Assembly (NCBI GenBank): GCA_044229975.1
Contig: JBGARZ010000004.1
Location: forward strand, 96,001 to 160,000
DNA: 64,000 nt
Direction: 5' to 3'
Origin: Polyangiales bacterium
GTDB lineage: Bacteria; Myxococcota_A; Polyangia; Polyangiales; Ga0077539
In this document: one piece after another, positions 13,482 to 43,253 of the stretch
How the letters are laid out: each line of letters opens with the position of its first letter
Position numbering within the stretch: the first letter of the stretch is position 1
Notes under the pieces: model-generated
What the model was told of the DNA's origin: nothing
What the model saw: the letters and a program-made list of their open reading frames with translations, nothing else
Database searches by the model: none
Position numbers and translations under genes: made by a program

Positions 13482-13550
13482 GGTCCGCACATGGTCACCT
13501 CCCACGAGGTCCAGGCAAGCGCCGAGTCTCACACGACCATCAGCGCCTCG

Positions 13551-25819: not shown

Positions 25820-26066
25820 CGCCGCGTCCACACCGGAGTTCACCGTGCCGCCCCCGCGCCCGTCACGCTCGGTTCACTCCACGGCTACTTCACGCGGATC
25901 GCCCCGCCGAAGCGGGGCTCAGGAGGCCCACCTGAGGGCATTCGATCGTCCCTGGGTAGAGGCACTGAGCCCCGCTTCGGCGGGGCGATCCGCATGAAAT
26001 AGTCCGGAGTGAACCGAGCGTGACGGGCGCGGGGGCGGCACGGTGAACTCCGGCGTGGACGCGGCG
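25820..26066. repeat. Long palindromic element related to family A
   Basis: ~100-bp inverted arms; shares TGAAATAGYCCGGAGTGA core and CCGGAGTTC/GAACTCCGG motifs with family A. Confidence 0.85.
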
Positions 26067-26364
26067 AGCTGTCCTGCTTTGGATGCGTAGGAGAAATCGG
26101 TGTCCTCAGGACACCACCGGGCGCCCTCGTCGGTTGACGCTCGCCCCGGCGTGGAGAGACCCTCACACCGTGCCGTACCGCGTCGCTCCGCTGCGCCGCC
26201 CCGGAGGGCCGCGCCCCGATCGAGGTCGATGGTTCGCGCTGCTCGGGGTGTTCGCCGGTGCGGCCGTCGGGCCGTTCGTCCTCCGCGAGCGTCGACCCGG
26301 CGCGCGGCCGGTGTGCATCCGACAGCGGCCGCCGCCCGCGCTCACTGAAGCGCACCGGTGAGCC

Positions 26365-27453
26365 TCAGCGCATCGCGTCCGCCGTCGGGAGCGCTCGCGC
26401 GAGCCACTCCTTCACCAACGCGTGTCGCGTGGCGGCGTCGCCGCTGCGTTCGAGCAGCGCGCGCAGGTCGGCGCCCGTGAGCGCGCCCATCAGCACCGCC
26501 CGCATCGGGTCGGCGCCCAACGCCTGATGAACGCGCTTGCGCCCATCACGGTCGAGGGTCTTTCCACCGAGCACTTCGGACGACCACGCGTTCAAGCGCG
26601 CGATCAGCGTGTCGAGCGCGCGTCCATCGAAGGGCTCTTCATCGGGCGTCGTCGCCTCCGTCGGTCGCGCTGGCAGCGAGGGAGCGCCGCCCCACTCGTC
26701 GAGCACCGTGACCTCTCCCTCCGCCGGAATCTCCACCAGCAGAACAGACCCCCGATAGGCGACCTTGTTCAGTCCGACGGTGCGTACGCCTGCGATGACG
26801 CGCTCGGTGCGCGCGTGCAGGTGTCCGGTGAAGCACACGCGCGGTCGAAGCGCGGCGACGAGCTCGGACTGCCCCTCGCCGACGAGCGTCCAGGTGCGCG
26901 GCTTGAACCCGGGCGGCGCGTGGAGTTCGCTGAACGTCCCCGCCGGAGGCTCGTGCAGGAGCAGCACATCGAGCCGCTCGGTCGCGCGGGCCTTCAGGCG
27001 TTCGAGGTCGGCTTCGACGTAGTGGCGGCGCGCCCACCCCGAGACGCGGACCTTTTCGTAGTCGCGCGGGCCGTAGCAGCCGCCGATGCCACCGACGCGC
27101 AGGGTCTCTACCCCTGCGCGCACCTCGGTGACCTCGCCCCATGGGAGAAACCAGAGGTTCTCGATGAGCTCGTTGGAGGAGCGCGCGGCGAGGTAGTCGA
27201 AGTCTTCGTGGTTGCCCGCGATGAAGATCGTCTTGCGCGGCACGCGCCCGGCGCGAAGCAGTCGGCGAAAGCTGCCGTCCTCGCCGTGCTTCTGCGTGGC
27301 GTCGTCGAGGTGATCGGGGTCGGGCCACACGCCGAAGTCTCCGACGTGCAGCACGCAGGCGACCTCGCGTCCGGCCTCGCGCTCCAGCGCGTCGACGGCC
27401 GCGTACATCTGATCAAATTCCCCGTGGGCGTCTCCCACCGCACAAACAAGCAT
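26365..27453 (-). CDS. Calcineurin-like metallophosphoesterase resembling lariat debranching enzyme Dbr1
   Basis: GDAHG, GDFG, GNHE, LLHEPP, GHLH motifs. Confidence 0.85.
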   Translation of the reverse strand: MLVCAVGDAHGEFDQMYAAVDALEREAGREVACVLHVGDFGVWPDPDHLDDATQKHGEDGSFRRLLRAGRVPRKTIFIAGNHEDFDYLAARSSNELIENLWFLPWGEVTEVRAGVETLRVGGIGGCYGPRDYEKVRVSGWARRHYVEADLERLKARATERLDVLLLHEPPAGTFSELHAPPGFKPRTWTLVGEGQSELVAALRPRVCFTGHLHARTERVIAGVRTVGLNKVAYRGSVLLVEIPAEGEVTVLDEWGGAPSLPARPTEATTPDEEPFDGRALDTLIARLNAWSSEVLGGKTLDRDGRKRVHQALGADPMRAVLMGALTGADLRALLERSGDAATRHALVKEWLARALPTADAMR

Positions 27454-27487
27454 TCGCGTGCGGTGGTAGCTCCCGTCGAGGGCAGGT

Positions 27488-27886
27488 TCAAGCGCGGCGG
27501 GTTCGTGTCCCTGTTCGGGTGGTGGTGGCGCCCTCGACCCGCAGGATGCTCTCCATCTTCTTCCCCTTGGCGAGCTCGTCGACCAGCTTGTCGAGGTAGC
27601 GGATCTTCTGCATCAACGGGTCGGCGACGTCCTCCACGCGCACGCCGCACACGAGGCCCTTGATGAGCCCGACGTTGGGGTTCATCCGAGGCGCGTTGGC
27701 GAAGAAGGTCTCGAAGTCGGTCTTGTCGTCGAGGACGCGCTGAAGCTGCGCGCCCTCGTAGCCGGTGAGCCACGCGATGACCTCGTCGACCTCGGCCTTC
27801 GTGCGCCCCTTCCTCTCGGCCTTCTTCACGTAGAGCGGATACACGCTCCCAAACGACATCGTGTAGATGCGGTGCTTCTTGTCCAT
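27488..27886 (-). CDS. DUF2200 family protein
   Basis: [23 protein letters not shown]...WLTGY...[15 protein letters not shown]. Confidence 0.9.
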
Positions 27887-27986
27887 GCGCGTCGGATCAC
27901 CGATAGCAGCGGGCGCAAGTCGGCACCAAGATCGTGTCCGCGCGGGGATCTCACGATGCCGGCCGACCGCGGCGTACGATCTCGGG

Positions 27987-28751
27987 ATGCGTGATCGAGA
28001 CGGCAAACAGATCCTGAGGCTGCCGCTCTTCACCCGATCGCCGAGCACCATGAGCGCGGTCGAGCTCGCGATGGCTGCGGTCGAGGACATCCACCGCGTG
28101 AAGCTGGTGCTCGCGGAGTTCGATCGCGGTGGCCGGGTACCCGACGCGGAGGCGGCCGCCGTCGTGATCCGCGCGCACGAGGAGGACAGCATCGAACCGT
28201 GGTGGGCCGCGGCGCTCCTCGGGCGCATCGGACACCCGAGCGGGTACGCGGTGGCGCTCGCGATCCTCGGGCCAGAGTCGGGGCGGGCGACGTCGTTCTA
28301 CGCAGAGGAGGCCGTCGCGCGGTTGGGCGGTGCGGGGGGCGCGGTCGACCTCCTGCCGTGGCTCGACGAGGAGCCCGCGGAGCGGCGCCAGGCTGCCGTG
28401 CGGACACTGGGCCTGGCTGGTGCTCGCGATGCGTTGCCGATGATCTGTGAAGCAGCGCTCGCGGGGCGTGTCGGGTACCGCAGTGCGTGGGTCGCGCTGG
28501 TGACGCTCGACGTGGACGACGCCACGGTCGCGTCGTGGCTGCGGTCGGAGGACAGCGCCGCGGTCTACCTCGGATGCGAGGTGGTGTTCGAGCGGCTGGA
28601 GCGGAGGCCGGGGACAGCGTGGCGACGCGCGGCGCGACAGCCCGGGAGCGAGCTCGCGCCGTGGGTTCGCGCGGCGTGCGGGCGCGCGGACGTGAAGCTG
28701 CTGCGGTACGAGCGAGAGGCGCTGATGACGTGGGCCGAGCAGGCGCGCTGA
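27987..28751 (+). CDS. HEAT-repeat protein
   Basis: [27 protein letters not shown] repeats; TACGAT 6 nt before the ATG. Confidence 0.6.
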
Positions 28752-28804
28752 GCGCCGCGGAATGGGACTGCGCGTCGGTTGGGGGTGGCGCAGCCCGTTG
28801 TGCC

Positions 28805-28839
28805 GGCTGGGGTGCGGGCCAACGCCCAAACCCCAGCCC
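28805..28839. repeat. Single REP-like hairpin (family B arm fragment)
   Basis: GGCTGGGGTGCGGGCCAACGCCCAAACCCCAGCCC, nearly identical to the arm end at ~21500-21531; lies between convergent genes. Confidence 0.75.
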
Positions 28840-28896
28840 GCGCGCCACACCCAATCGACGCTCATTGCACGCCGCGCGCGATGCGCTGCTCCCTCT

Positions 28897-30366
28897 CTAA
28901 TCCGCCAGCACCATCGCGATCGGCGGCAGCTCGCCCTCCGTCCAGCGCGCGGCGAGGAAGCGCCGCACCTCGTCGACGTCGAGCGTCTGCTTCGCGCGCG
29001 GCGACAGCGTGAGCTCGGGCTGCTCGACCCACTGCGGGTGGGCGACGCCCCGCGCGCTCACCTCGCGCACCGCCGGGTGCTCCGCCGCGAGGCGCGCGAG
29101 CGCCGACGTATCCACCCACTGACCGCCGCAGCGCACGAGCGGCTTGCTCCGTCCCGTGAGCCGCAGCGAGCCCCGCGCGTCGCGCACACCGAGGTCGCCC
29201 GTGCGGAGCCATCCCCCATCGCTCCAACGATCGGGCGTCGCACCCAGCGAGACGTACGCCTCGGCCACCCACGGACCGCGCAGTTGCACCTCGCCCTCGC
29301 GCTGCGCGTCCCACGGGAGCTCATCGCCCCCGTCGCCCACCACCCGCATCTCCATCAACGGAACCACCCGCCCCTGCGCGCTCTCCCCGAGCGCCGCGCT
29401 CGCGAGCGGGCCCGTCTCGGTCATCCCGTACACGTGCAGCACCTCGATCGCGTGCGCCGCGAGCGACGCCAGCAGCGACGGCGGCGCGGCGTTGCCACCT
29501 GCGAGCAGACGCAGCCCGCGCGGCAGTGTCGGCCCTTCAGGGTGCGCGTCGAGCTCCCCGGCGAGGGCCACCCAGGTGCTGCTCACGCCCGCGGCGAAGG
29601 TCACCGCCTCCGCGGCCATCACCTCGCGCAGTCGCGCTGGTGGCGTCGCAGGGTCGATCAGCACCATCGCGTGTCCGAGGAGCGCGAGCGTGTGCGGCAG
29701 CCCGCAGCCGTTGGCGTGGTGCAGCGGGAGCGCGGGGAGCACCACGTCGCGCCGCCCGAGGCCGAGCCCGTCGACGGTCGCGCAGGCCATCGCGTGCAGC
29801 ACCAGCGCGCGGTGCGAGTACACCACGGCGCGCGGCAGGCCGACGGTTCCGGCTGCCTCGCACATCACGGCGGGGCGCGCCTCGTCGTCGGCGAGCGCCA
29901 CGGTGGCTTCGGCGCCGAGCGCGCACAGGTCGTCGTAGCGCCACGCACCCTCGGCGTCGGCGTCGACGAGCACCAACGTGGTCACGCCCGCCTCGTCGCA
30001 GAGCGCGCGCGCCAGCGCGGCGTGACGAGCGTCGGCGAGGAGACAGCGGTCGCCAGCGCGGCGCAGCGCATGGACCAGCGCCTCACGCGGCGCGCGCGGG
30101 TTGAGCGGGTGCAGCACGAGCCCGGCAGACGGAACCCCCCACAGCGCCTCGATGTGCGCGCGGCTGTTGTCGAGCAGCGAAGCAACGACGTCGCCTTCGG
30201 CCAGGCCCCGCGCGCGGAGCCCACGACCCAGCGCGAGCGCTCGCCCGGCGACTTCGTCGAGGCGGTGGGCGTGGCGCGTTCCGTCGGCGGCGTAGACCAC
30301 CAGCGACCGGGCGCCGTGCTCGCGCGCCGCGCGCTGAACCAGCGATGTCAGGGTGAGCGCGCTCAC
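28897..30366 (-). CDS. AMP-dependent synthetase/ligase-like protein with degenerate motifs
   Basis: YGMTET, RGPWV, GWLRTGD, GRSK present; P-loop reads CEAAGTVGLPR; no C-terminal catalytic Lys motif; GTGA overlap. Confidence 0.8.
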   Translation of the reverse strand: MSALTLTSLVQRAAREHGARSLVVYAADGTRHAHRLDEVAGRALALGRGLRARGLAEGDVVASLLDNSRAHIEALWGVPSAGLVLHPLNPRAPREALVHALRRAGDRCLLADARHAALARALCDEAGVTTLVLVDADAEGAWRYDDLCALGAEATVALADDEARPAVMCEAAGTVGLPRAVVYSHRALVLHAMACATVDGLGLGRRDVVLPALPLHHANGCGLPHTLALLGHAMVLIDPATPPARLREVMAAEAVTFAAGVSSTWVALAGELDAHPEGPTLPRGLRLLAGGNAAPPSLLASLAAHAIEVLHVYGMTETGPLASAALGESAQGRVVPLMEMRVVGDGGDELPWDAQREGEVQLRGPWVAEAYVSLGATPDRWSDGGWLRTGDLGVRDARGSLRLTGRSKPLVRCGGQWVDTSALARLAAEHPAVREVSARGVAHPQWVEQPELTLSPRAKQTLDVDEVRRFLAARWTEGELPPIAMVLAD

Positions 30367-31067
30367 AGCGCCTGCTGGACGGAGGCCGCGCGGGCGAGGA
30401 GCCGTCGACGGTATGCGTCGGTGTCGTCGTCGAGCGTCGGGAGATGGCGTCGGATGAGCGCGGTCGGCACGGCGCCTTCGCGCACGAGGAGCGGGCGCTC
30501 GAAGGTGAGGTCGACGATGGTGTTGGCCGCGGGAACATCGGACGTAGCGTGCGCGCCGCCGTCCACGGCGAGGGCGACGTGCGCGCCGAGGTCGGCGAGG
30601 GCGTGGGCGAGGGTGACGCGGCCGCTGGCGTTGCCCGAGAGGTTGGCGGAGCTCGACGCGAGGGGCCGACCCGCAGCGCGCGCGAGGGCAGCGTAGAAGG
30701 GCTCCGAGGTCACGGTCACGGCGAGGGTGCGAAGCCCGCACGTGAGCCGCTCGGGGAAGGGGTGCGACTGCCGAAACACGAAGCACACCTCGCCCGGCCA
30801 GAGCGCGCGCATGGCCTCCCGGTTGAACCACTCGGGCACGTGCACATAGCGGTCGACGCTGTCGGCGTCGGGGAGGCACAGCGGTAGTGGTCCCAGCTTG
30901 GTTCGCTGCTTGGCGCGGAAGATCGCCTCGACGGCGGAGGCGGAGTCGGCGTCGCAGACGACGTTGTAGTTGGTCGCGTGCGGAACGATCACGAGCTCAC
31001 CGCGGTCGATGGCCGCGAGCGCGGCGGCAAGTGCCTCAGGGCCCGCGGGGTACACCGGAGCGGTCAC
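30363..31067 (-). CDS. YrdC/Sua5/TsaC-family paralogue 2
   Basis: G.LVIVPHATNY, IFRAKQR, LWPG, SSSANLSG, TIVD; GTGA overlap. Confidence 0.85.
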   Translation of the reverse strand: MTAPVYPAGPEALAAALAAIDRGELVIVPHATNYNVVCDADSASAVEAIFRAKQRTKLGPLPLCLPDADSVDRYVHVPEWFNREAMRALWPGEVCFVFRQSHPFPERLTCGLRTLAVTVTSEPFYAALARAAGRPLASSSANLSGNASGRVTLAHALADLGAHVALAVDGGAHATSDVPAANTIVDLTFERPLLVREGAVPTALIRRHLPTLDDDTDAYRRRLLARAASVQQAL

Positions 31068-31783
31068 GCCGCCTCCGCCATGCGCGTCCCGAGGAGGCCG
31101 ACGTAGTGGTCGTGCAGCGCGCTCCACGCGGCGCAGATCTCCGTGACGGCCTCGGTGGCCTCGCGGTGGAAGTCCGGGACCTCCTCGGCGTAGCGACGCA
31201 CCAGCGCGAGGCCCGTCGCCGCGTGGTCGTCCTCCGCCTCGGCATGAACGCTGAACCACTCCAGCTCCATCGCCGTGAACGTGTGGTTCGCGCGCAGCCA
31301 GCGGAGCACCCGCAGCACGGCCTCACCGGACTGGCTCTCGATCGCGTGCAGCGCGAGCATGGCGACGGCGGGGTGGCGCGTGCGGCAGATGCCGATGGCG
31401 GTGCGCACCCAGGTCATCACCGGCTGCGAGGCGCCGCCGCGCTCGAAGGCTTCGTCGGCGACGCCGCACGCCTCGGCGAAGCGCCGCATGAGGTCGTAGT
31501 GCGAGGCCGTGCCCGAGGTGATGGCGGTCTCTTCGGCGACGATCTGCTCGACCATGAACTGCCGCACCGGCTCGCAGTCCCAGGCGTTGGCGTGGATGGC
31601 GGTGAACATGGCGTTCTGGAGGAAGACCTGGTGGTACTTCTCCGCGGCCCAGGCGCCGAGGCGCGCGCGGTCGGGGCGGGTCGCGTCGAGGGAGGCCACG
31701 AAGGGGTGGCGGGCGGCGCGGTGCCGCTGGCAGATGTCGTGACAGGCGGTGAGGGTCTCTTCGAGCGTGGGTTCGTGGGTCAT
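31064..31783 (-). CDS. Heme-oxygenase-like diiron enzyme (CADD/PqqC/TenA fold)
   Basis: HPF; EE...SH; AIESQ; WFSVHAEAEDDH ligand pattern. Confidence 0.8.
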   Translation of the reverse strand: MTHEPTLEETLTACHDICQRHRAARHPFVASLDATRPDRARLGAWAAEKYHQVFLQNAMFTAIHANAWDCEPVRQFMVEQIVAEETAITSGTASHYDLMRRFAEACGVADEAFERGGASQPVMTWVRTAIGICRTRHPAVAMLALHAIESQSGEAVLRVLRWLRANHTFTAMELEWFSVHAEAEDDHAATGLALVRRYAEEVPDFHREATEAVTEICAAWSALHDHYVGLLGTRMAEAA

Positions 31784-31818
31784 GGCGTGAGCTCCGTGGG
31801 TGTCGATGGTCATCGGGC

Positions 31819-32556
31819 TCAGGCCGCCGTGGAGAGGCGCGCACGCTCGCTGAAAAACGCCTCGAAGTCGGCGCGAATGCGAGGCCCGTTGACCCCTTCG
31901 CGCTTGAGGGTTCCGTTGGTGAAGTTGAGGATCGTGGTGGCCTTGCGCGCCGGGTTCTCCAGGGCCGCGACGCCGTGGTCGATGGCGCAGTCGACGCCTT
32001 GCACGATGTGTTCGGGCATCTCCTCGAAGCGGAAGATGTTGCCCATCGAGGAGGGGTTGGCCGACGAGCCGACGAAGCACCAGCCCTCGCTGAGCGCGCG
32101 GGAGACGAGGCGCTCGAAGAAGCCGCCGCAGCGCATGAACACCGCGATGGTTCCGCGGGTGACGGCGTGCGAGCGGACCCACGGGTCCATGCGCTGCAAC
32201 ATCGGCGACTCGGCGCGAACGGGGAAGACCGCGGCACAGGTGGAGTAGTTGAGCACGCGCTGGAGCAGGGCCCGCTCCTCGGGCGTGACGATGGCGACCT
32301 CATCGAGCAGGTCCCAGTTGCCGGCGAACACGCAGGGGTTGCTGTCGGGGCGCCCCTTGAGCTCGTACATCTTCTGGATCGCCGCCGAGGAGGTTCCGAG
32401 CAGCCCGTACCCGATGTCGCCCTTCGCGAGGAGGAGGCCGCCGTCGCGGAGGCAGTTGAGCGCGCGGGTCTCCTCGTCGACGGTCCACGCGGGGGCGGGG
32501 ACGAGGCTCAGGCGGCTGCTGCGGGGGGCGGTATCGAGGGTCGGGGTGAGGTTCAT
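31819..32556 (-). CDS. YrdC/Sua5/TsaC-family paralogue 1
   Basis: GGLLL..DIGYGL, ELKGRP..NP, GSSANPS, TTI, REG; AAGGAG RBS. Confidence 0.82.
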   Translation of the reverse strand: MNLTPTLDTAPRSSRLSLVPAPAWTVDEETRALNCLRDGGLLLAKGDIGYGLLGTSSAAIQKMYELKGRPDSNPCVFAGNWDLLDEVAIVTPEERALLQRVLNYSTCAAVFPVRAESPMLQRMDPWVRSHAVTRGTIAVFMRCGGFFERLVSRALSEGWCFVGSSANPSSMGNIFRFEEMPEHIVQGVDCAIDHGVAALENPARKATTILNFTNGTLKREGVNGPRIRADFEAFFSERARLSTAA

Positions 32557-32859
32557 GATCGGGCTCCTTGTTGGGGTGGTGGAGCCTCTTTTTCATTGCT
32601 CATGCCAGGGCCCGAATCGGCTGCGAAACAAGGGTATCCGGTGCTGTGGCGGACGGCGTGTGATGCACGGTGTCGGCTCCAATCGGTGACACGAGGGAGC
32701 CGTGTGTCAGTGGCACTGACCTGGTTGTCTCGTCCAAGGGTTCTGCGGCGCGCACGCACCGCCGTAGAGGGCATGGGCGCCGCGCGCTCGGTTGGGCATC
32801 CCCCTCGTCGCGGGCATTGGGCTACGGTGAGCGCCTCCGTGAAGAAGCTCTGGTCGTCC

Positions 32860-33237
32860 ATGTCCCCGCGGGTTCGTCAGTTGATCGCCGCCGCCGTGCT
32901 GGTGCTGGGCGTCGTGGTGGTGGGCCGCGAGCTCGGTGGTCGTGCCCCGCGTGACGTGACGCTGCGGGCCGACCTCGGCGGGCTCGCGCGGCAGGGCTTC
33001 GTGGCGCGCACGCTGCGCGTCGAGCTGCTCGACGTCGACGGCACGACGCTGCGGCGCATCGAGCGACGGGCCGACCCGGGCGGGGCGCTCGACGTGGTGC
33101 GGGCGCCGCTGTCGCTGCCGACGGGCCGCTGGCGCACGCGGGTGGAGGTCGCGGGCGACGCGCGGGTGCTGAGCCGCGAGGTCACCATCGAGGTCGAGGC
33201 GGGGCACACGGTCGACGTGCCGCTGCCGGAGCTGTAG
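32860..33237 (+). CDS. Membrane-anchored hypothetical protein (start uncertain)
   Basis: N-terminal TM LIAAAVLVLGVVVV followed by a beta-rich domain. Confidence 0.55.
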   Translation: MSPRVRQLIAAAVLVLGVVVVGRELGGRAPRDVTLRADLGGLARQGFVARTLRVELLDVDGTTLRRIERRADPGGALDVVRAPLSLPTGRWRTRVEVAGDARVLSREVTIEVEAGHTVDVPLPEL

Positions 33238-33243
33238 GGGCCG

Positions 33244-33274
33244 CGCTTCGACCCACCGCCAGTGGGTCGAAGCG
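33244..33274. terminator. Hairpin between convergent genes (non-canonical terminator candidate)
   Basis: 13-bp perfect stem CGCTTCGACCCAC/GTGGGTCGAAGCG; no U-tract. Confidence 0.4.
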
Positions 33275-33296
33275 AAAGGCTATGGGCCCGTCGGTG

Positions 33297-33596
33297 CTAC
33301 CGGCAGCGCCCGCCGCGGCACTCCTGGCCAGCCCCGCAGCGCATCCCGCATCGCCCGCAGTGGGCTTCGTCCTCGCGCAGGTCGACGCACTTCCCACCGC
33401 ACCGCACCGTCTCGCGCGGGCACACCCCGCCATCCACCGCCGCGTCCACCGCCGCGTCCACCGCCGCGTCCGCCGCCGCGTCCACCGCCGCGCCCACGTC
33501 CATGCCTGCGTCCGTGCCCGCGTCGGGCGTCCAGTGGCCTTCCTTCAGCTCCGAGCACCCGATCAGCGACACCGCAGCCACCAGCCACCGAGTCAC
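33297..33596 (-). CDS. Small Cys-rich lipoprotein
   Basis: Lipobox LIGC, DAAV repeats, CGGKCVDL..HCGRCG..C. Confidence 0.65.
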   Translation of the reverse strand: MTRWLVAAVSLIGCSELKEGHWTPDAGTDAGMDVGAAVDAAADAAVDAAVDAAVDGGVCPRETVRCGGKCVDLREDEAHCGRCGMRCGAGQECRGGRCR

Positions 33597-33598
33597 CC

Positions 33599-34522
33599 TC
33601 AAAACCACCCCACGCACGCGACGCCCACGGTGCCCGGTCCGGCGCCGCAGGACACCCGCGCGCTCGCCCCGTCGCGCCTCGACGGCGCCGCCACGAACAT
33701 CACCACCGCCGCCACGCCCAGCACCCCGCCCGCGATGAGCCCCGCCATCGACACGTCGCCCAGCGTCCCCGCCAGCTCGCGGTCGTCGCGACACGTCGGC
33801 GTCTCCGCCGCGAGCGGCGCCGACGTCCCCAGGCATCGTCCGTTGTAGCGACCCACCGTCGACTCGTGCAGCGCGAAGGTCACCGCCGCGCCCACCAGCA
33901 GCGCCGCGCCCACGCCGGCGCTCGTCCACGCCAGCGCGCGCAGCGTCCCACCGCGCGCAGTGGGCGTCGTCACCGCGAGCCTCGGCGCGAGCTGCACCGC
34001 CTCGCGCGTCACCCCGGTGGGCCTGACCGTGAGCTCGCGCACCATCGGGTCGTAGCCCGGCGCGCTCACCTCCAACCGCACCGCGCCGCTCGGCACCCGC
34101 ACCGGCGCCGCCATCGGAACCACCCCCACCAACGACCCGTTGATCAGCACCTGCGCGCCCGCCGGTCGACCGCGCACCTCCACCGCGCCGAACTGCCGCT
34201 CGATGGCCGCGAGCAGGCCCCGCAGCGCCGCGCGGTGGCGCTGGATCCACGGGTCACTGGACTCCAGCGCCTCGCGCAGATGGACGTGCGCCTCCACCCA
34301 GCGGCCGAGGGCGTGCTCGGCCATCGCGATCTGCGCGCGCGCCCGCGGGCTGTGCGTCTCCTCCCACGCCTCGCGGAAGATCGTCAGCGCCTCCTCGTCG
34401 CGCCCGGCCTCCCGCAGCGTCACGCCCCGCTCCATCATCGCGTCGATGCGGGACACCTGCGCCGCCGCGGGCGTCGCGAGCGCCATCCACGCCGCCGCGA
34501 TGGTGGCCGCGACGACCTTCAT
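33599..34522 (-). CDS. TPR + PEGA domain protein
   Basis: Signal peptide, TPR, PAGAQVLING..G..P...VSAPGY PEGA, C-terminal hydrophobic segments. Confidence 0.85.
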   Translation of the reverse strand: MKVVAATIAAAWMALATPAAAQVSRIDAMMERGVTLREAGRDEEALTIFREAWEETHSPRARAQIAMAEHALGRWVEAHVHLREALESSDPWIQRHRAALRGLLAAIERQFGAVEVRGRPAGAQVLINGSLVGVVPMAAPVRVPSGAVRLEVSAPGYDPMVRELTVRPTGVTREAVQLAPRLAVTTPTARGGTLRALAWTSAGVGAALLVGAAVTFALHESTVGRYNGRCLGTSAPLAAETPTCRDDRELAGTLGDVSMAGLIAGGVLGVAAVVMFVAAPSRRDGASARVSCGAGPGTVGVACVGWF

Positions 34523-34528
34523 GGTGCT

Positions 34529-35950
34529 TCAGCGCAGGATGAGAACATCACGTCGAGGCGGCCTTCGTGGGGCCGCGCCGACCGGAGCGGTAGTGCGCGC
34601 GACGAGCGGTCGGCGCACGGGCACCGGGCGCGCAACGGCCACCGCGACCGGCGCCGCGACGACGGGCACGGGCGCCTCCACGACGACCGCGGGCGCGGGC
34701 GGCGGTGCGACGACCACCGGGCGAGCGAGCGGGCGGGGTGACGGGGCGGCGGCCGGGGCGCGCGGGACGAGCACCCACGCGGCGGCGACGGACAGCGCGA
34801 CGAGCGCGGCGGCGACCCAGCGGGTGCGATGGGGCGACGCGACGACGGCGGTCGCGGGTGCATCGACCGGGCGGGCGGCGTCGCTGAGCGTCGACGTGAT
34901 GCGCGGGCGCGACGGAGGGACCGTCGGCAACGGCTGGTCGAGGGTGACGGCCCCGCGCGGAGACGTCGTCGCCGCGGGGGGCAGGGGCAGGGGGTGTGAG
35001 GGCACGAACGACCGCAGCGTGTCGCCCGTGGAGTGCGGGGCGAACTCCGAGCGCCAGAGGGAGCGCGCCGCCTCGCTGGCGAAGGGGAGCAGCGCTGCGC
35101 CGAGGGCGTGCACCGAGGGGAAGCGGTGCGCCGGGGTGCGGGCGAGGGCGCGCAGGACGACCTCCTCGAAGCCCGGCGGAATGCCAGGGCGCAGCGATCG
35201 CGGCGGGGGGATGGGCGCCCGCACGATGGCTTCGAGCAGCTCGAAGAGCCCGTCGCACTCGAAGGGGACGCGCCCCGTCACGCCCTCGTAGAGCACCACG
35301 CCGAGGGCGTACTGATCGCTGAGCATGGAGGCGTTGCGGCTGTTGACCGCCTGCTCGGGCGACAGGTAGAGGGGCGTCCCGAGGAGCACGGACCCGCTGG
35401 TGAGGGAGGTGTCCTCGTCGAGGAGCCGGGCCACGCCGAAGTCGAGCACCTTGGGCTTCACCGCGCCGTCGGGGGACGCCGTGAGGAAGACGTTTTCGGG
35501 CTTGAGGTCGCGGTGGATGATGCCCTCGGCGTGGGCGGCCCCGACCGCCGCGATGACCGGGAGCATGAGGTCGGTGAAGCGCTCGATGGGGAGAGCGCCC
35601 TCGCGCTGCATGAGGGCGGAGAGGTCTTCGCCGGCGAGGTACTCCATCGCGAGCCAGGCGACGCCCCCTTCGACGCCGCTGTCGAGGATCTCGACCGCGT
35701 GCGGGTGCTTCACCCTCGACGCCGCCCGTCCCTCGCGCAGGAAGCGCTCGCGCGCGGTGGGCCCGTCGACCCGCGCGTGGAGCACCTTCACCGCGACGCG
35801 CGTGCCCAGGTCGGCGCGCACCGCCTCGAAGACGAGCCCCATGCCCCCGCGGCCGATGCGCCGGACGAGGCGGTACGGCCCGAAGCTCGACCCGATGTCG
35901 AAGCCACCATCGTCCGCCTCGGGGGCGCCGTCGGTCGTGGTCTCGTTCAT
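34529..35950 (-). CDS. Hanks-type Ser/Thr protein kinase, membrane anchored
   Basis: GRGGMG, VAVK, HRDLKPEN, DFG, GTPLYLSPEQ, TM segment. Confidence 0.95.
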   Translation of the reverse strand: MNETTTDGAPEADDGGFDIGSSFGPYRLVRRIGRGGMGLVFEAVRADLGTRVAVKVLHARVDGPTARERFLREGRAASRVKHPHAVEILDSGVEGGVAWLAMEYLAGEDLSALMQREGALPIERFTDLMLPVIAAVGAAHAEGIIHRDLKPENVFLTASPDGAVKPKVLDFGVARLLDEDTSLTSGSVLLGTPLYLSPEQAVNSRNASMLSDQYALGVVLYEGVTGRVPFECDGLFELLEAIVRAPIPPPRSLRPGIPPGFEEVVLRALARTPAHRFPSVHALGAALLPFASEAARSLWRSEFAPHSTGDTLRSFVPSHPLPLPPAATTSPRGAVTLDQPLPTVPPSRPRITSTLSDAARPVDAPATAVVASPHRTRWVAAALVALSVAAAWVLVPRAPAAAPSPRPLARPVVVAPPPAPAVVVEAPVPVVAAPVAVAVARPVPVRRPLVARTTAPVGAAPRRPPRRDVLILR

Positions 35951-36043
35951 GGCCGTTACCGACAACATCGCGAAACCCGCCGCGGCGTCAATGCCACCAC
36001 GGAAGAAACACCTTGTGGGTATACCTCCGGAAATAGCGGCTTT

Positions 36044-38200: not shown

Positions 38201-38247
38201 CGGGTTCGTTGATCGGGCGCACCGAACCGTGATTGCCTCCGCGGTCG

Positions 38248-40248
38248 ATGAGCGCCCCCCACGAGCCTGAGTCTTCGCCCGCCAACGCGTTTCCCATCGA
38301 CCTGTCACCGCTCTCCGACCCGGAGGCGATCGCCGCCCGCGACCGCGAGTGGCTGGAGAAGGTCTATGCGCGAGGGGTTCCGCAGCTCACCGTCCGCGCG
38401 GCCGTCACGGGCATGCTGCTCGGGAGCATCCTCGGCGCCTCCAACCTCTACATCGGCCTGAAAATCGGCTGGAACTTCGGCATGTCCATCACCGCGAGCG
38501 TGCTGGCGTTCGCGATCTTCTCGGCCGTCCGCAGGCTCATCCCGGGCCTGTCCGAGTTCACCATGCTGGAGAACAACACGTCGCAGACGGCCGCCTCGGC
38601 CGCCGCGTACATGTCCTCGGCGGGTCTCGTGAGCTCCATCCCCGCGCTGACGATGCTGCGCCGCGAGCACGTCATCAACGTCCCCGAGCTCACGCCGATG
38701 CAGCTCACCTTCTGGCTGCTGGCCGTCTCGGTGCTCGGCGTGGTCGTCGCCATCCCCCTCAAGCGCAACCTCATCAACGCCGAGCAGCTCCGCTTTCCGT
38801 CGGGCATCGTGTGCGCGGAGACCATCCGCACCATGCACGCCGCCGGGAAGGAGTCGCTCGCCAAGGCGCGCTCGCTCCTCGTCGCCGGGCTCTTCGCGGC
38901 GGTGATGAAGTTCATCTTCGACTGCAAGCTGTGGATCTTCCGGCGGTTGCCCGAGACCGTGGGGCTGCCGTTCATGGTGCGGGGGTATCCGGCGGAGTCG
39001 TGGTCGTTCGCGCTCAACACGTCGCTCCTGCTGTACGCCGCGGGCGCCATCGTCGGGCTCAAGGTCGCGCTCAGCCTCGCGGTGGGCAGCGCCATCAACT
39101 ACGGCTTCATCGGCCCGTGGCTGCTCGACCACGACGTGCTGCGCGTCGCAACCGCGGCTGACACCGCGACGCCCGCCGCGTGGCAGACGTTCGTCCACGC
39201 CGCCGAGCACGACCACGCCATCCCGGTGCGCTCGGCTGCGGCGCTGCATGCGCTGCTGCGGTCGAAGTGGAGCGTCTGGCCCGGAACCTCCCTCATGGTG
39301 AGCGCGAGCCTCGTGGCGTTTGCGTTCCGCTGGCGCACCATCGCGCGAGCGTTTTCTGGGCTCGGCGGGCTGTTCTCGTCGGGCCGGAAGGCGGTCGCGG
39401 AGGAGGACGCGCTGGCCGAGGTGGAGGTGCCGTCGACGTGGTTCGGGGTGGGGCTCGCGCTCTGCACCGTGGCCTCGGTGGTGATGCTGAAGGCGTGGTT
39501 TGGTGTTCCGGTGTTCGAGGGCGTGATGGCGGTGGCGCTGGCCTTCGTGCTGAGCGTCGTGGCGGCGCGCGCGACGGGCGAGACCGACGTGACGCCCATC
39601 GGCGCCATGGGCAAGATCGCGCAGCTGCTCTTCGGCGTGCTCGTTCCGGGCAACGCGGCGGCCAACCTGATGACGGCCACGGTGACCGCGGGCGCCGCGT
39701 CCCACTCGGCCGATCTGCTGACGGAAGTGAAGACCGGCTACCTGCTGGGCGGAGCGCCGCGGAAGCAGTTCTGGGCGCAGATCCTGGGCGTGATCGCGGG
39801 CGCGTTCGTGTGCGTGCCGGCGTACTTCCTCATCGCGAAGCCCGAGCGGCTGGGCAACGACCTCGCGGCGCCCGCGGCGGTGGCGTGGGCCTCGGTGGCG
39901 AAGCTGCTCAAGGACGGTCCGGGCAACCTGCCGCGGTACGCGATTCACGCCATCGTGGCGGGCGCGGCGCTGGGCGTGGTGCTCGCGGTGGCGGAGGAGT
40001 TCGCGCCGAAGAAGTGGAAAGCCTACCTGCCGAGCGCGACGGGCCTGGGCATCGCGATGGTCATCGACTTCAACGACAGCTTCGCGATGCTGGTGGGCGC
40101 GGTCATCGCGTGGGTGCTGCACCGTACGCACAAGGACTTCGCCGAGCGGTACATCGTGTCGGCGTCATCGGGCGTGGTCGCGGGCGAGGGGCTCATGGGC
40201 ATCGTGGTGATCGTGCTGCGCGACATCGCGCATGTGCTGCCGGGGTGA
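38248..40248 (+). CDS. OPT/YSL-family oligopeptide transporter
   Basis: QLTVRA, NLYIGLKIG, LENN, LRFPSG, TGETDVTP, KTGYLLG, SGVVAGEG; many TM segments. Confidence 0.93.
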   Translation: MSAPHEPESSPANAFPIDLSPLSDPEAIAARDREWLEKVYARGVPQLTVRAAVTGMLLGSILGASNLYIGLKIGWNFGMSITASVLAFAIFSAVRRLIPGLSEFTMLENNTSQTAASAAAYMSSAGLVSSIPALTMLRREHVINVPELTPMQLTFWLLAVSVLGVVVAIPLKRNLINAEQLRFPSGIVCAETIRTMHAAGKESLAKARSLLVAGLFAAVMKFIFDCKLWIFRRLPETVGLPFMVRGYPAESWSFALNTSLLLYAAGAIVGLKVALSLAVGSAINYGFIGPWLLDHDVLRVATAADTATPAAWQTFVHAAEHDHAIPVRSAAALHALLRSKWSVWPGTSLMVSASLVAFAFRWRTIARAFSGLGGLFSSGRKAVAEEDALAEVEVPSTWFGVGLALCTVASVVMLKAWFGVPVFEGVMAVALAFVLSVVAARATGETDVTPIGAMGKIAQLLFGVLVPGNAAANLMTATVTAGAASHSADLLTEVKTGYLLGGAPRKQFWAQILGVIAGAFVCVPAYFLIAKPERLGNDLAAPAAVAWASVAKLLKDGPGNLPRYAIHAIVAGAALGVVLAVAEEFAPKKWKAYLPSATGLGIAMVIDFNDSFAMLVGAVIAWVLHRTHKDFAERYIVSASSGVVAGEGLMGIVVIVLRDIAHVLPG

Positions 40249-40259
40249 GCTGAGCGGGC

Positions 40260-40442
40260 GGGTGGGGACGGTTTCAGCTTTTCAGTTTGTTGAGCGGCGG
40301 TGAGTGGGTGAGGACGGTTTCAGCTTTTCAACTTGTCACAATCGATCGGGTCCAGACATTCGTGACAAATTGAAAAGCTGAAACCGTCCCCACCCGCTCA
40401 CCGCCCGCTCAACAAATTGAAAAGTTGAAACCGTCCCCACTC
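40260..40442. repeat. Composite palindrome of four ~31-bp units (two direct, two inverted), family C
   Basis: GGGTGGGGACGGTTTCAGCTTTTCA..TTGT at 40260 and 40306; reverse complements at ~40365 and ~40412. Confidence 0.9.
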
Positions 40443-41873
40443 CACCACCTCCGCGCTCGCTCTCCCCGCCTGGCGCTTGTCGTCGACCACGCCGCGCTCA
40501 CCTTCGCCGACCTCGACGACCGCTCGGCCCGCGTCGCCACCGCCCTCGCCCGCCGCGGCGTCGCGCCCGGTGACCGCGTGGCCGTCGCGGTGCGCTCCTC
40601 CCTCGACGGCGTCGTGTGCCTGCTCGGTTGCCTGCGCCGCGGCGCCGTCGTCGTCCCGGTCAACCCCGGTTATCACGAGGCCGAGCTCTCCCACCTCCTC
40701 GCCGACAGCGGTGCTGCCCTCGTCATCGAAGACGAACCCTCCGCTCCTCTCCGCGCCGTCATCGCGACCACTCCCCTCGTCACCTCCGCCGCGCTCGTCG
40801 CCGAGTCCCCCTCGACCGACCCCGCAGCCGATGCCCTCTCGCGCGACGACGAACTCGCGATGCTCATCTACACCTCCGGAACCACCGGGCGCTCCAAGGG
40901 ATGCGCCCACACCCATCGCGGACTCGCCGTCGGCATCGACGCCCTCATGTCCCTCTGGGGCATCGGCCCCGATGACGTGGTGCTCAACGCGCTGCCGCTC
41001 TTTCATGTCCACGGCCTCTGCGTGTGCCTCCTCGGTGCGCTCTCCCGCGGCGCCTGCACCCGCCTGCTTCCGCGCTTCTCCCCCGAGGCCGTCGTCGATG
41101 GTGCTCGCCACGGCGCCACCGTCTTCATGAGCGTCCCCACCATGGTGCACCGCCTGCTTGCCGCCCTCGACGACGACGGCGCGCGCACCCTCTCGTCGCT
41201 CCGCCTCGTCACCTGCGGATCAGCTGCGCTCTCCGCCGACAACCTCCGCGCCTTCGAGGCGCGCACCGGCCTCACCATCCTCGAACGCTACGGCATGAGC
41301 GAGACCCTCATCACGCTCTCCAATCCCCTCGTCGGCGAGCGCCGCCCCGGCGCCGTCGGGTGGCCCGTCCCCGGCACCCTCATCCGCGTCGTCGACGACG
41401 AGCTCCAGGTGTCCTCCCCCGGCACCATGCGCTCCTACTGGAACCGCCCCGACGCCGACGCCGAGGTCTTCGTCACCGACGCCGAAGGCATTCGCTGGTT
41501 TCGCACCGGCGACGTCGTCGCCCTCGACCCTGACGGGTGCGTTCGCATCGTCGGCCGCGCCAGCCAGGACATCATGAAGGTCGGCGGCTACAAGCTCTCC
41601 ACGCGCGAGATCGAAGAGCAGATCGAGACCCACCCGGCCGTGCGCGAGGTCGCCGTCGTGGGCCTGCCCGACGCCGAGTGGGGCGAGCGTGTCTGCGCCG
41701 TCGTGGTGCTGCATCCCGGCGCGTCGCTCACCCTCGACGCGCTGCGCGCCCACGTGAAGCTCGCCGAGTCCAAGCGCCCCCGCGCGCTGGTTTTCAGAGA
41801 AGAACTGCCCCGCAACGCGCTCGGCAAGGTGATGAAGTCGGCGCTGAAATCGGGACTCTCGGAAGGGCGCTGA
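40425..41873 (+). CDS. Acyl-CoA synthetase (MatB/malonyl-CoA synthetase-like)
   Basis: YTSGTTGRSKG, LPLFHVHGL, ERYGMSE, WFRTGD, PRNALGKV. Confidence 0.92.
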   Translation: MKPSPLHHLRARSPRLALVVDHAALTFADLDDRSARVATALARRGVAPGDRVAVAVRSSLDGVVCLLGCLRRGAVVVPVNPGYHEAELSHLLADSGAALVIEDEPSAPLRAVIATTPLVTSAALVAESPSTDPAADALSRDDELAMLIYTSGTTGRSKGCAHTHRGLAVGIDALMSLWGIGPDDVVLNALPLFHVHGLCVCLLGALSRGACTRLLPRFSPEAVVDGARHGATVFMSVPTMVHRLLAALDDDGARTLSSLRLVTCGSAALSADNLRAFEARTGLTILERYGMSETLITLSNPLVGERRPGAVGWPVPGTLIRVVDDELQVSSPGTMRSYWNRPDADAEVFVTDAEGIRWFRTGDVVALDPDGCVRIVGRASQDIMKVGGYKLSTREIEEQIETHPAVREVAVVGLPDAEWGERVCAVVVLHPGASLTLDALRAHVKLAESKRPRALVFREELPRNALGKVMKSALKSGLSEGR

Positions 41874-41930
41874 GACACCCTCCTGGGGGCCTCGCGCGAA
41901 GCACGGGTGACGGTGCTAGTGTCGCCAGCG

Positions 41931-42374
41931 ATGTACAAGAACGACAAACCCACGCGCGAGACCGAAGCTCCGCTGCGGTCGGCCATCGCGGAGAAGCATG
42001 GCATCGAGGCGTTCACGCTCTTCTGCGCGTACCACCTCGGGGTGACGGCGAGCGACGGGTACGAGTTTCAGAACGTGCACCAGGTGGCCAAGCGGTTTGG
42101 GGTTCCGAGCGGGGTCATCAAGCAGGCGTTGCAGGACTTCGGCATGGACTCCGACCGGCTCATCCAGAGCGACTTCGACCTCTCGGGCGCCCAGGTCGAC
42201 GTCATGAACGTCCCCGAAGGCGTCTCCCGCACCGAAGTCGCGCGCACGCATTGGGAGGCGTTTCGCAATGCACGGACGAAGCCCCGCGACTGGCAGCGCG
42301 AGCTCGCCACCGACGCGCGCGAAAACGAGAGGATCTTCGGCCCACCCCCCGCCCGCCGCTCGACGCGGAAGTAG
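41931..42374 (+). CDS. Hypothetical protein
   Basis: Coding-like codon bias; extended -10 TGcTAGTGT 8 nt before the ATG. Confidence 0.75.
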   Translation: MYKNDKPTRETEAPLRSAIAEKHGIEAFTLFCAYHLGVTASDGYEFQNVHQVAKRFGVPSGVIKQALQDFGMDSDRLIQSDFDLSGAQVDVMNVPEGVSRTEVARTHWEAFRNARTKPRDWQRELATDARENERIFGPPPARRSTRK

Positions 42375-42392
42375 AGAGAGCCCCACCAGACC

Positions 42393-43253
42393 ATGGACCC
42401 GACCGCTACCGTCCGCGTTCCTGTGTGCAGCGACCCGAAGTGGCTGCGCTCCGCCGTGCTCGGGCTCACCGCCGGCGCCTCTGGGCTCTTCGTCGCCCTC
42501 TTCTCGCAGACCCCCGTCGGCGCCGCGCTCGGCGTGCTCCCCGGCATGACCATCGGCGTCTTCGGCGGCAGCGCCCTCGCTGCCTGGGCCCGCCGCCGCG
42601 GCGGAACCATCTCCCTCCTCGCCACCCCCGGCCGCCTCGACGTCAGCGACGCCGACCGCCGCGTCGAGCTCGTCGACCTCACCGCCCCCTACGGCGCCCT
42701 GCTCCTCGCCGACGCCACCCGCCGCGTGCTCATCCTCTCGCAGCGCAACGACCCCGTCGTGCTCATCGAGTCCCTCGTCACCACCGCGGCCACCACCTCC
42801 GACGCGTGGCGCGCCCGCACGGCCCCCGTCGACCTCGACGCCGTCGCCCTCTCCGCCGCCACCTCCCACGCCTTCGCGCTGCTGCCCGGTGAGTCGCTCG
42901 ACCCGCTGCTCGCGCACCTCGAAGCCACCCTCGACGCCGACGCGCCGTGGATGCTCCAGCCCACCAGCTCGGGGCCGCTCACCCTCACCCGCGACGCCCT
43001 CAGCTTCGCCGACCGCGCCCCGCTGCGCGCGCCCATCCACCCGCTCGACTACGGCGTGAAGGTGCAGGGGGCTCAGGTCGCCGGCCTCGGCCTCGCCTCC
43101 ACCGCCGAGGAGGGCGCGCTGCTGCTGCTCGCGTGCGACGAGGCCACCGTCGAGAAGCGCGCCGTGACCACCGACAACCCGGTCGACGCCTTCGTCCCGA
43201 TGTCCACCTACGAGGTGCTGCGGGCGATGTACCGGGCTCCGGCGAAGGGGTGA
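42393..43253 (+). CDS. Hypothetical membrane protein (two N-terminal TMs)
   Basis: Two hydrophobic helices then a soluble domain; co-directional with the upstream gene. Confidence 0.7.
   Translation: MDPTATVRVPVCSDPKWLRSAVLGLTAGASGLFVALFSQTPVGAALGVLPGMTIGVFGGSALAAWARRRGGTISLLATPGRLDVSDADRRVELVDLTAPYGALLLADATRRVLILSQRNDPVVLIESLVTTAATTSDAWRARTAPVDLDAVALSAATSHAFALLPGESLDPLLAHLEATLDADAPWMLQPTSSGPLTLTRDALSFADRAPLRAPIHPLDYGVKVQGAQVAGLGLASTAEEGALLLLACDEATVEKRAVTTDNPVDAFVPMSTYEVLRAMYRAPAKG

Follow-up and report, generated by a model that had tools for sequence, protein, structure and literature searches.

Two YrdC-fold paralogues and a diiron oxidase in a conserved gene cluster: a predicted accessory small-molecule pathway in Polyangiales and other bacteria

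What could be the product of an operon that combines two proteins of the YrdC fold with a diiron oxidase? Such an operon is present in the genome of a Polyangiales bacterium (GenBank assembly GCA_044229975.1, contig JBGARZ010000004.1). It lies within a stretch of 64,000 nucleotides, positions 96,001 to 160,000 of the contig, that was analysed as a whole and is called the window here. Four tightly packed genes on the minus strand of the window, at positions 28897-32556, encode a divergent YrdC-fold protein (YrdC1), a heme-oxygenase-fold diiron oxidase (HDO), a TsaC-like YrdC protein (YrdC2) and a homologue of the ANL superfamily (Table 1). A preliminary description of this DNA assumed a pathway making carbamoyl-adenylates of amines other than threonine, with a ureido or carbamate metabolite or an unusual RNA modification as the outcome. 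Its account of four co-directional genes, the last three joined by GTGA overlaps, is correct. Its interpretation is supported in part. Based on comparative sequence analysis, we predict that the operon is an accessory small-molecule pathway module whose YrdC enzymes likely adenylate alkylmalate-type carboxylates, and assign to this reading a probability of about 40%.

HDO belongs to a small family, for which a word-indexed search across 5.8 billion proteins produced 25 clusters. Pattern scans yielded 27 related loci, 12 from species-representative genomes and 15 from metagenomes, and their neighbouring genes were mapped by tblastn. This count includes near repeats, as L027 and L028, and also L025 and L026, look like one sequence each, and L035 comes from the same metagenome-assembled genome (MAG) as L005. 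YrdC1 and a gene of the Amidohydro_2 family each adjoin the HDO gene in 18 of the 27 loci, a LeuA-like synthase gene in 15, YrdC2 in 14, and a LeuC-like large subunit gene in 10. Both YrdC types adjoin it in 11 loci. Eight of the 15 metagenome contigs are shorter than 3.3 kb, so absences there say little; the loci without the YrdC1-HDO-YrdC2 trio are mostly such contigs. By their deposited names, the carriers of this three-gene core are two Polyangiales MAGs, a Nannocystaceae MAG, a "Proteobacteria" MAG, Ramlibacter and Sulfurifustis MAGs, Anabaena subtropica FACHB-260, a Bacillales MAG, and Tumebacillus lacus DT12. Thus the core recurs in organisms named for Myxococcota, Proteobacteria, Cyanobacteria, and Firmicutes. 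Since the trio is found together in 11 of 27 loci from several phyla, the grouping exceeds chance, and the combination of YrdC1 and HDO, often with YrdC2, is conserved across phyla. This was the outcome of the neighbourhood search that the preliminary description had called for. At the same time, the operon is an accessory, patchily distributed trait: HDO was found in two of 150 other sampled genomes of the same order, in one of them weakly, and in none of five genomes of the same genus.

The usual gene order outside Polyangiales is LeuA-like, YrdC1, Amidohydro_2, HDO, YrdC2, a transporter of the major facilitator superfamily (MFS), LeuC-like, LeuD-like. Some loci additionally contain citrate-synthase-like, isopropylmalate-dehydrogenase-like, isocitrate-lyase/phosphoenolpyruvate-mutase-family, HlyD or solute-binding genes. 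The LeuA-like proteins have no regulatory domain and score under all cutoffs for isopropylmalate synthase (IPMS). The LeuA-like and LeuCD-like genes of the related loci, L016 apart, come without LeuB. Among solved structures, the Amidohydro_2 protein is most closely related to PtmU3, LigW, and ACMSD. In three actinobacterial loci with HDOs 36-41% identical no YrdC gene was observed, and in two of them LeuCD-like genes directly follow the HDO gene. A threonine ammonia-lyase (IlvA-type, above the TIGR01124 cutoff), encoded on the plus strand at positions 2298-3626 of L011 and thus about 1 kb upstream of the Sulfurifustis cluster, could provide the LeuA-like enzyme with 2-oxobutyrate.

Natural fusions point to the same types of enzymes. 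The YrdC1 profile, compared with 1.84 billion representative proteins, matched 60 of them at E <= 1e-30 and, with the threshold relaxed to E <= 1e-10, 213; 14 matches of unusual length were scanned against Pfam. Two are complete fusions of a LeuA-like protein (domains HMGL and HCS_D2) with YrdC1, and a third is a fragment of one. In L007, LeuA-like and YrdC1 are also in one reading frame, the contig being cut at its end. One protein is a fusion of YrdC1 with HDO, its halves being 43% and 41% identical to YrdC1 and HDO of the window, respectively. In six proteins a YrdC-like domain precedes an HpcH/HpaI domain of the citrate-lyase-beta/malyl-CoA-lyase family (P0138, P0142, P0160, P0166, and P0209, 876-896 aa; P0170, 419 aa). 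The three of these that were aligned (P0142, P0160, P0209) retain the ATP-binding KxR and SxN motifs. The five long forms carry a further C-terminal region of about 400 aa, with a FAS1-type dehydratase-region match there in P0138. Of the remaining four proteins, three show PF01300 alone and one an MmgE/PrpD fragment alone. When longer proteins were screened for fusions of YrdC2, only three Sua5-type multidomain proteins were observed, nothing specific.

A distant relative of YrdC1 is linked to leucine biosynthesis. It resembles the Streptococcus mutans protein smu.1377c (PDB 3L7V), to which YrdC1 is closest among solved structures (E 5.7e-8), and was found in seven of 300 other sampled genomes from the class of G152, the genome that holds L016; all seven are about 2 Mb. 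These relatives from small Bacilli genomes match the YrdC1 profile at E ~1e-16 and retain KxR/SxN. In both Bacilli loci inspected, the gene directly follows leuA-leuB-leuC-leuD: a 259-aa 3L7V-like YrdC-fold protein, encoded at 8046-8822 of L050 (minus strand) and at 8346-9122 of L051 (plus strand), ends the leuABCD operon. This suggests that it is an unrecognised fifth gene of the leucine operon. However, these proteins are distant from YrdC1, and their operon is a canonical one, with neither HDO nor a second YrdC.

Because enzymes releasing or cleaving alkylmalate-type acids recur as neighbours or fusion partners of YrdC1, this protein likely activates a carboxylate of such an acid. As fusions and neighbourhoods tie it to enzymes of 2-hydroxy-dicarboxylates, direct adenylation of a C-carboxylate seems at least as likely as formation of a carbamoyl-adenylate. 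By our own chemical argument, a 2-alkylmalate mimics an N-carboxy-amino acid, a compound of the type adenylated by TsaC, as its CH2-for-NH isostere, OH taking the place of the alpha-H. Adenylation of alkylmalates has a precedent in the cystargolide and belactosin pathways, where, according to PMC11427300, cluster-encoded IPMS homologues make 3-alkylmalates and the ANL enzyme CysF adenylates their C4 carboxyl. The related loci likewise contain LeuA-like and LeuCD-like genes, and L025 has a methyltransferase and an ANL-like match. However, the adenylating enzyme of those pathways is not of the YrdC fold, and they have no HDO. The window operon contains no IPMS, methyltransferase or hydrolase gene, and thus does not have the set of IPMS, CysG, CysF, and CysE; we do not claim membership in this group.

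Gene order, motifs, the TsaC/Sua5 candidates elsewhere in the genome, conservation, fusions and residue losses can be read from the sequences directly; the catalytic steps of the proposed pathway, their order, the class of substrate and the product are what we infer. YrdC1 would likely adenylate the carboxylate of a 2-hydroxy-dicarboxylic acid of the alkylmalate type, and HDO would likely oxidise the same molecule with O2. YrdC2, the closer of the two to TsaC, would form a second adenylate, possibly that of a true carbamate. The ANL homologue would take over an acyl group activated beforehand and transfer it to a thiol or an amine. More tentatively, YrdC1-type proteins might constitute a new functional class of the YrdC fold that adenylates C-carboxylates of (alkyl)malate-type acids in place of carbamates and hands the adenylate directly to partner proteins, the clusters making an undescribed family of oxidised metabolites derived from alkylmalates. 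The partners receiving the adenylate might then be, equally tentatively, the fused diiron oxidase, the LeuA-like or malyl-CoA-lyase-like enzymes and, in the window, the adenylation-deficient ANL protein.

A hand-over of this kind is known for the YrdC fold. In HypF and in TobZ/NodU/CmcH, a YrdC-fold domain makes an adenylate that is used by a second active site (PMC6594144 and PMC6004061), and by analogy the YrdC1::HDO and LeuA-like::YrdC1 fusions suggest something similar. However, the operon contains neither a Kae1-like transferase domain nor an acylphosphatase. The partners here are a diiron oxidase and an ANL homologue and, in the relatives, LeuA-like synthases. HypF is only a weak match (21.7 bits in NCBIfam, E 4.7e-4 in PDB).

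Both paralogues exceed the gathering score of PF01300 (25.1 bits). The motif readings of the preliminary description, KxR and SxN kept and the threonine-pocket motif changed to KGDIGYGL in YrdC1 and PHATNYNV in YrdC2, hold in our alignments. The ATP-binding tetrad is KGR and SAN in YrdC1 and KQR and SAN in YrdC2. In PMC10321239, from which the numbering and residue roles were taken, KxR/SxN of Pa-Sua5 bind ATP, and T33, S181, R195, and H67 bind threonine. The conserved residues of YrdC1 are K67 and R69 (KxR), S165 and N167 (SxN), and R219, which matches R195. All five are invariant across YrdC1 and the aligned fusion and streptococcal-type forms, that is, in the 10 sequences of alignment A4 (YrdC1, the LeuA-like::YrdC1, YrdC1::HDO and HpcH/HpaI fusions, and the streptococcal-type homologue). 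The same ATP-binding residues are conserved in the YrdC2 family alignment. The equivalent of R195 is kept in both paralogues and their orthologues, and is the sole threonine-binding residue kept throughout. In YrdC1, KGDIGYG places Gly at T33, and S181 is replaced by Thr; P59 and N62 are kept. In YrdC2 of the window, T33 is replaced by His (most orthologues have Thr), S181 by Asn, H67 by Cys (Cys or Ser in the family), and N62 by Gly. The YrdC2 orthologues also have a common conserved C-terminal tail (P210, L212, D215, Y219), which by analogy may act like the gating linker of Sua5. In the tree, the YrdC2 rows form one clade (97/95), which joins the rows of Sua5/YciO and stands apart from those of YrdC1 and the streptococcal proteins (99/96). 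The tree contains only three reference sequences, one wrongly picked open reading frame (ORF), Sua5like_L041, on a very long branch, and a warning about long-branch joining; we use it solely to conclude that YrdC1 and YrdC2 are two distinct paralogue families.

The same residues are consistent with a second explanation, a serious one that differs from the alkylmalate reading by one atom of the substrate. The two YrdC paralogues could N-carboxylate amines other than threonine with CO2 or bicarbonate and make carbamoyl-adenylates, so that a metabolite of the ureido, carbamate or cyclic carbamate/urea type would result, and HDO would tailor the substrate derived from an amino acid. The kept tetrad and carboxylate-binding Arg, together with the changed positions of the threonine pocket, fit this well. 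Cyclic carbamates are chemically plausible, as threonylcarbamoyl-AMP self-cyclises to an oxazolidinone (PMC6004061). The reaction is known for only about a dozen of over 10,000 HDOs, and amino or fatty acids are what the characterised ones mostly act on (PMC13108848). In L016, the cluster adjoins a gene for an NMT1-type ABC binding protein. However, no Kae1/TsaD-like domain that could serve as the carbamoyl acceptor was observed among the ORFs scanned in the related loci, and the constant partners, LeuA-like, LeuCD-like, Amidohydro_2 and HpcH/HpaI-type proteins, handle hydroxy-dicarboxylic acids and are not amine makers. The amines and CO2 supposed in the preliminary description are indicated by none of these data. 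We therefore regard this explanation, with regard both to the adenylates and to the role of HDO in it, as possible rather than probable.

Another suggestion of the preliminary description was RNA modification. One version would be a variant of the threonylcarbamoyladenosine (t6A) system, for instance one making a non-threonine carbamoyl-adenosine. YrdC2 scores 117.5 bits with TIGR00057, the curated TsaC equivalog, just 5.7 bits under the cutoff of 123.2 bits, and the T33 equivalent is kept in most of its orthologues; YrdC1 scores 34.5 bits. The operon paralogues share with TsaC/Sua5 (COG0009, TIGR00057) the PF01300 fold, the KxR/SxN tetrad and the equivalent of R195. However, both are below the cutoff, the threonine pocket is altered, there is no TsaD partner nearby, the operon is accessory, and these are not the only copies in the genome. 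The window genome (10.0 Mb in 39 contigs, 93% complete) has four PF01300 matches, two of them outside the operon, and the cutoff is passed by two other proteins, L001 with 178.2 bits and L002 with 182.3 bits. The former TsaC candidate is of the Sua5 type with the motifs PTETVYGL and KGRP, and the latter has 217 aa. Since these two proteins exceed the cutoff, neither operon paralogue would be the sole or housekeeping TsaC, and both appear to be extra copies; the role of the sole TsaC was rejected for them. This also answers the question, raised in the preliminary description, of whether a separate housekeeping tsaC exists. No family of the TsaD/Kae1 type turned up in the scanned ORFs, exporters are common in the loci, and the patchily distributed core is linked to them and to organic-acid enzymes. 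An unusual RNA modification is thus unlikely, and a t6A-variant system in particular is very improbable; it was rejected because of the other TsaC candidates, the missing TsaD/Kae1 families and the distribution. We consider it likely that the operon makes a small metabolite by an undescribed route and is not a tRNA-modification system.

One more possibility is that the module is catabolic, an organic acid or amine being imported via MFS or ABC transporters and degraded by activation, oxidation and steps resembling the tricarboxylic acid cycle. Solute-binding or ABC importer genes are found beside the cluster in L010, L011, L016, L029, and L030. The citrate-synthase-like, isocitrate-lyase/phosphoenolpyruvate-mutase-family and isopropylmalate-dehydrogenase-like genes of some loci agree with it, and HpcH/HpaI lyase fusions are typical of acid-assimilation chemistry. 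However, the MFS proteins score best against efflux-type models, and HlyD-type genes are present in L008 and L009. Several variants contain genes of biosynthetic tailoring. Of the variants without YrdC2, L027 has a fatty acyl-AMP ligase and a fatty-acid desaturase together with a 93-aa ORF, and L025 has a methyltransferase, the ANL-like match and a ketoacyl synthase III; UbiA prenyltransferases are encoded in L013 and L014. Catabolism or salvage is therefore unlikely.

HDO exceeds the cutoff of PF14518 (28.9 bits). It has the seven-helix fold and the 3 His/3 carboxylate ligand set of HDOs. Its six candidate metal ligands, E95, H105, E159, H190, E194, and H197, are invariant or nearly so and align to the ligand positions of CADD. 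The nearest relatives are self-sacrificing p-aminobenzoate synthases. A profile built from 21 family members identified as the closest solved structures the p-aminobenzoate synthases 9pj4 (a chain named "4-aminobenzoate synthase", E 3.2e-24) and CtCADD (8va9/1rcw, E ~1e-16). With the AlphaFold2 model of HDO (pLDDT 91.0, pTM 0.86), Foldseek ranked CtCADD chains first (TM 0.77/0.88-0.89), followed by TenA, PqqC, PolF, BesC, and UndA. One could thus suppose that HDO is a p-aminobenzoate synthase of the CADD type and that the operon serves folate metabolism. TIGR04305 is also its best NCBIfam match. However, the score is 68.1 bits, far under the cutoff of 200 bits, and the sacrificial residues of CADD, which we take to be Tyr27 and the amine donor Lys152 (only the cleaved tyrosine is backed by the published abstracts), are absent. 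The position of Tyr27 is V39 in HDO, a nearly invariant Val in the family, and that of Lys152 is Leu or Val. As the score is so low and both positions are changed, HDO is predicted not to be a synthase of this kind, and its make-up appears to be that of a dimetal oxidase acting on a free substrate. HDO also differs from CADD and NePabS in a four-residue insertion after the EE motif and in its coupling, in one case fusion, to YrdC1. The p-aminobenzoate explanation is scarcely credible and was rejected because the sacrificial residues are missing.

The fourth gene was called adenylation-like in the preliminary description. The superfamily assignment stands: the protein passes the gathering score of PF00501 (29.9 bits), is similar over its full length to the acyl-CoA synthetase of T. 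thermophilus for long-chain fatty acids (PDB 1ULT, E 1.9e-80), and retains the motifs YGMTE, TGD, and GRSK (GR-K-type). The adenylation motifs, on the other hand, are degenerate or missing. The P-loop (A3) is AAGTVGLPRA, compared with TTGTTGLPKG in the synthetase, and the protein stops seven residues past the position aligned to residue 509 of 541 in 1ULT, so that the last 30 residues or so are absent. The catalytic lysine (A10) of ANL enzymes presumably falls in this stretch. PF13193 was not detected, although it was found in another, ordinary ANL gene elsewhere in the window (40374-41870). Thus the protein has neither the Ser/Thr/Gly-rich P-loop nor the C-terminal lysine subdomain that mark adenylating ANL enzymes. 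Its orthologue in L006 (59% identical) ends at the same point, with no continuation hidden in another frame, and has an even worse loop, AVLRPGHLRA. Given that both the degenerate P-loop and the missing C-terminal region are common to the two orthologues, the ATP-dependent half-reaction has probably been lost, and the protein may use an adenylate made by one of the YrdC enzymes. Only two loci, L005 and L006, both of Polyangiales, have the gene. In the metagenome contig L019, whose YrdC1, HDO and YrdC2 are 73-79% identical to those of the window, it is replaced after YrdC2 by an MdcE-like gene (malonate decarboxylase gamma subunit, PF06833, 128.8 bits) at positions 2283-3026 of the plus strand.

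Several observations weigh against the alkylmalate reading. All characterised YrdC-fold enzymes, TsaC/Sua5, HypF, and TobZ, make a carbamoyl-type adenylate according to PMC6594144, and no precedent for adenylation of a C-carboxylate by this fold was found in the literature. The window operon itself has no LeuA-like, LeuCD-like or Amidohydro_2 gene, so the alkylmalate link is borrowed from its relatives. Single-protein queries of the window genome, which is 93% complete, gave no match to Amidohydro_2 (query from L007) and only 30%- and 24%-identical matches to LeuA-like (query from L008). As no dedicated gene of either kind was found, the window variant would need to draw its substrate from primary metabolism. 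With scores of 60-110 bits against the YrdC1 profile, the HpcH/HpaI fusions and the streptococcal proteins belong to the group only distantly. No YrdC2 is present within the flanks of L025-L027 and L029, and the four-gene set as such is confined to a few Polyangiales, L019 having its MdcE-like gene in place of the ANL gene. The association of genes gives no order of steps, and it is not evident what a diiron oxidase would do with such acids. The motif loss in the ANL homologue could equally well mean an inactive or purely structural protein.

The junctions between HDO and YrdC2 and between YrdC2 and the ANL gene are the GTGA start/stop overlaps, whereas YrdC1 and HDO are separated by a 5-nt gap. 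An alternative start of HDO is the second ATG, at 31783, which gives 239 aa and agrees with the public gene calls (239 aa). The operon is bounded upstream by a small divergent plus-strand ORF (from about 32767) and downstream by a convergent plus-strand ORF.

Table 1. Coordinates of the operon genes and of the upstream intergenic region in the window.
Feature	Coordinates	Strand	Details
YrdC1, divergent YrdC-fold protein	32556..31819	-	245 aa; PF01300 46.1 bits
HDO, CADD-like heme-oxygenase-fold diiron oxidase	31813..31064	-	249 aa; PF14518 55.8 bits, PF03070 51.2 bits
YrdC2, TsaC-like YrdC protein	31067..30363	-	234 aa; PF01300 124.7 bits
ANL-superfamily (acyl-CoA-ligase-like) homologue	30366..28897	-	489 aa; PF00501 187.4 bits
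Intergenic region upstream of the operon	32557..32766	-	Shine-Dalgarno-like AAGGAG at 32564-32569

The Shine-Dalgarno-like sequence is 8 nt ahead of the YrdC1 start. A consensus scan found no sigma-70-like promoter upstream of the operon, and a similar scan for terminators gave one terminator-like site, no more than is obtained with shuffled sequences. No riboswitch or leader was observed, as there is no Rfam match up to E 0.1 in positions 26000-36000 of the window. At the gathering score, nothing relevant was found in nine related loci. The sole Rfam match in these loci is to NsiR1, a nitrogen stress-induced small RNA, at 3488-3538 of L009 (plus strand, 50.4 bits), about 4.5 kb upstream of the Anabaena subtropica cluster. 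The biofilm metatranscriptome run X13 contains contigs of 236-341 nt, about 90-95% alike, that cover parts of all four genes; they are a relative's contigs in an RNA library and do not show transcription. Short pieces with few differences from the operon occur in the DNA runs X1-X3. DNA runs labelled wastewater, activated sludge or aquaculture contain small shares of the operon, from which we draw no conclusion about habitat.

The G+C content is 68-76% across the window, and the operon is not distinct from the rest. The wider neighbours (Ser/Thr kinases, a PEGA/TPR protein, DUF2200, a metallophosphoesterase) seem unrelated to it. Positions 10530-13550 (minus strand) encode a protein of 1007 aa that combines TIR, NPHP3_N-type NTPase, and TPR domains, an architecture typical of STAND-type defence or signalling proteins. 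The genes at 38233-43250 (plus strand) may form another small operon: an OPT-family oligopeptide transporter, then a complete ANL enzyme (PF00501 and PF13193), then two ORFs without a Pfam match. A very long open frame of more than 2100 codons, with a coding-like GC3 of 0.93, occupies positions 1-6333 (plus strand) and extends past the start of the window.

The preliminary description knew of no pathway with this gene set, and we found none in the open-access and bioRxiv literature. There, no paper combines a YrdC/TsaC-like term with an HDO or diiron term, and LeuA/LeuCD together with PqqC/TenA/CADD were not found described in such a cluster. The words carbamoyl, adenylat-, isopropylmalate, and aconitase are all absent from a 2026 mini-review of HDOs. 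Known folds thus occur here in an undescribed, conserved combination, and the chance that the YrdC fold performs new chemistry is fair.

A single chemistry is known for the YrdC/Sua5 fold, the formation of carbamoyl-adenylates, in three settings: t6A, HypF, and carbamoyltransferases of the TobZ type. Its paralogues YciO and smu.1377c are functional puzzles, and a 2023 preprint calls the function of the YciO subgroup unsolved. The operon offers a handle on these paralogues and on uncharacterised HDOs: a rare YrdC clade, natural fusions to HDO and LeuA-like proteins, and named carriers such as Anabaena subtropica FACHB-260 and Tumebacillus lacus DT12. If carbamoyl-adenylates are made, the cluster would represent a route to ureido or carbamate metabolites that does not involve nonribosomal peptide synthetases. 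If alkylmalates are the substrates, the reaction scope of a universal enzyme fold would be wider than known, a function would be suggested for the streptococcal homologues linked to the leu operon, and the cluster would point to a new class of metabolites.

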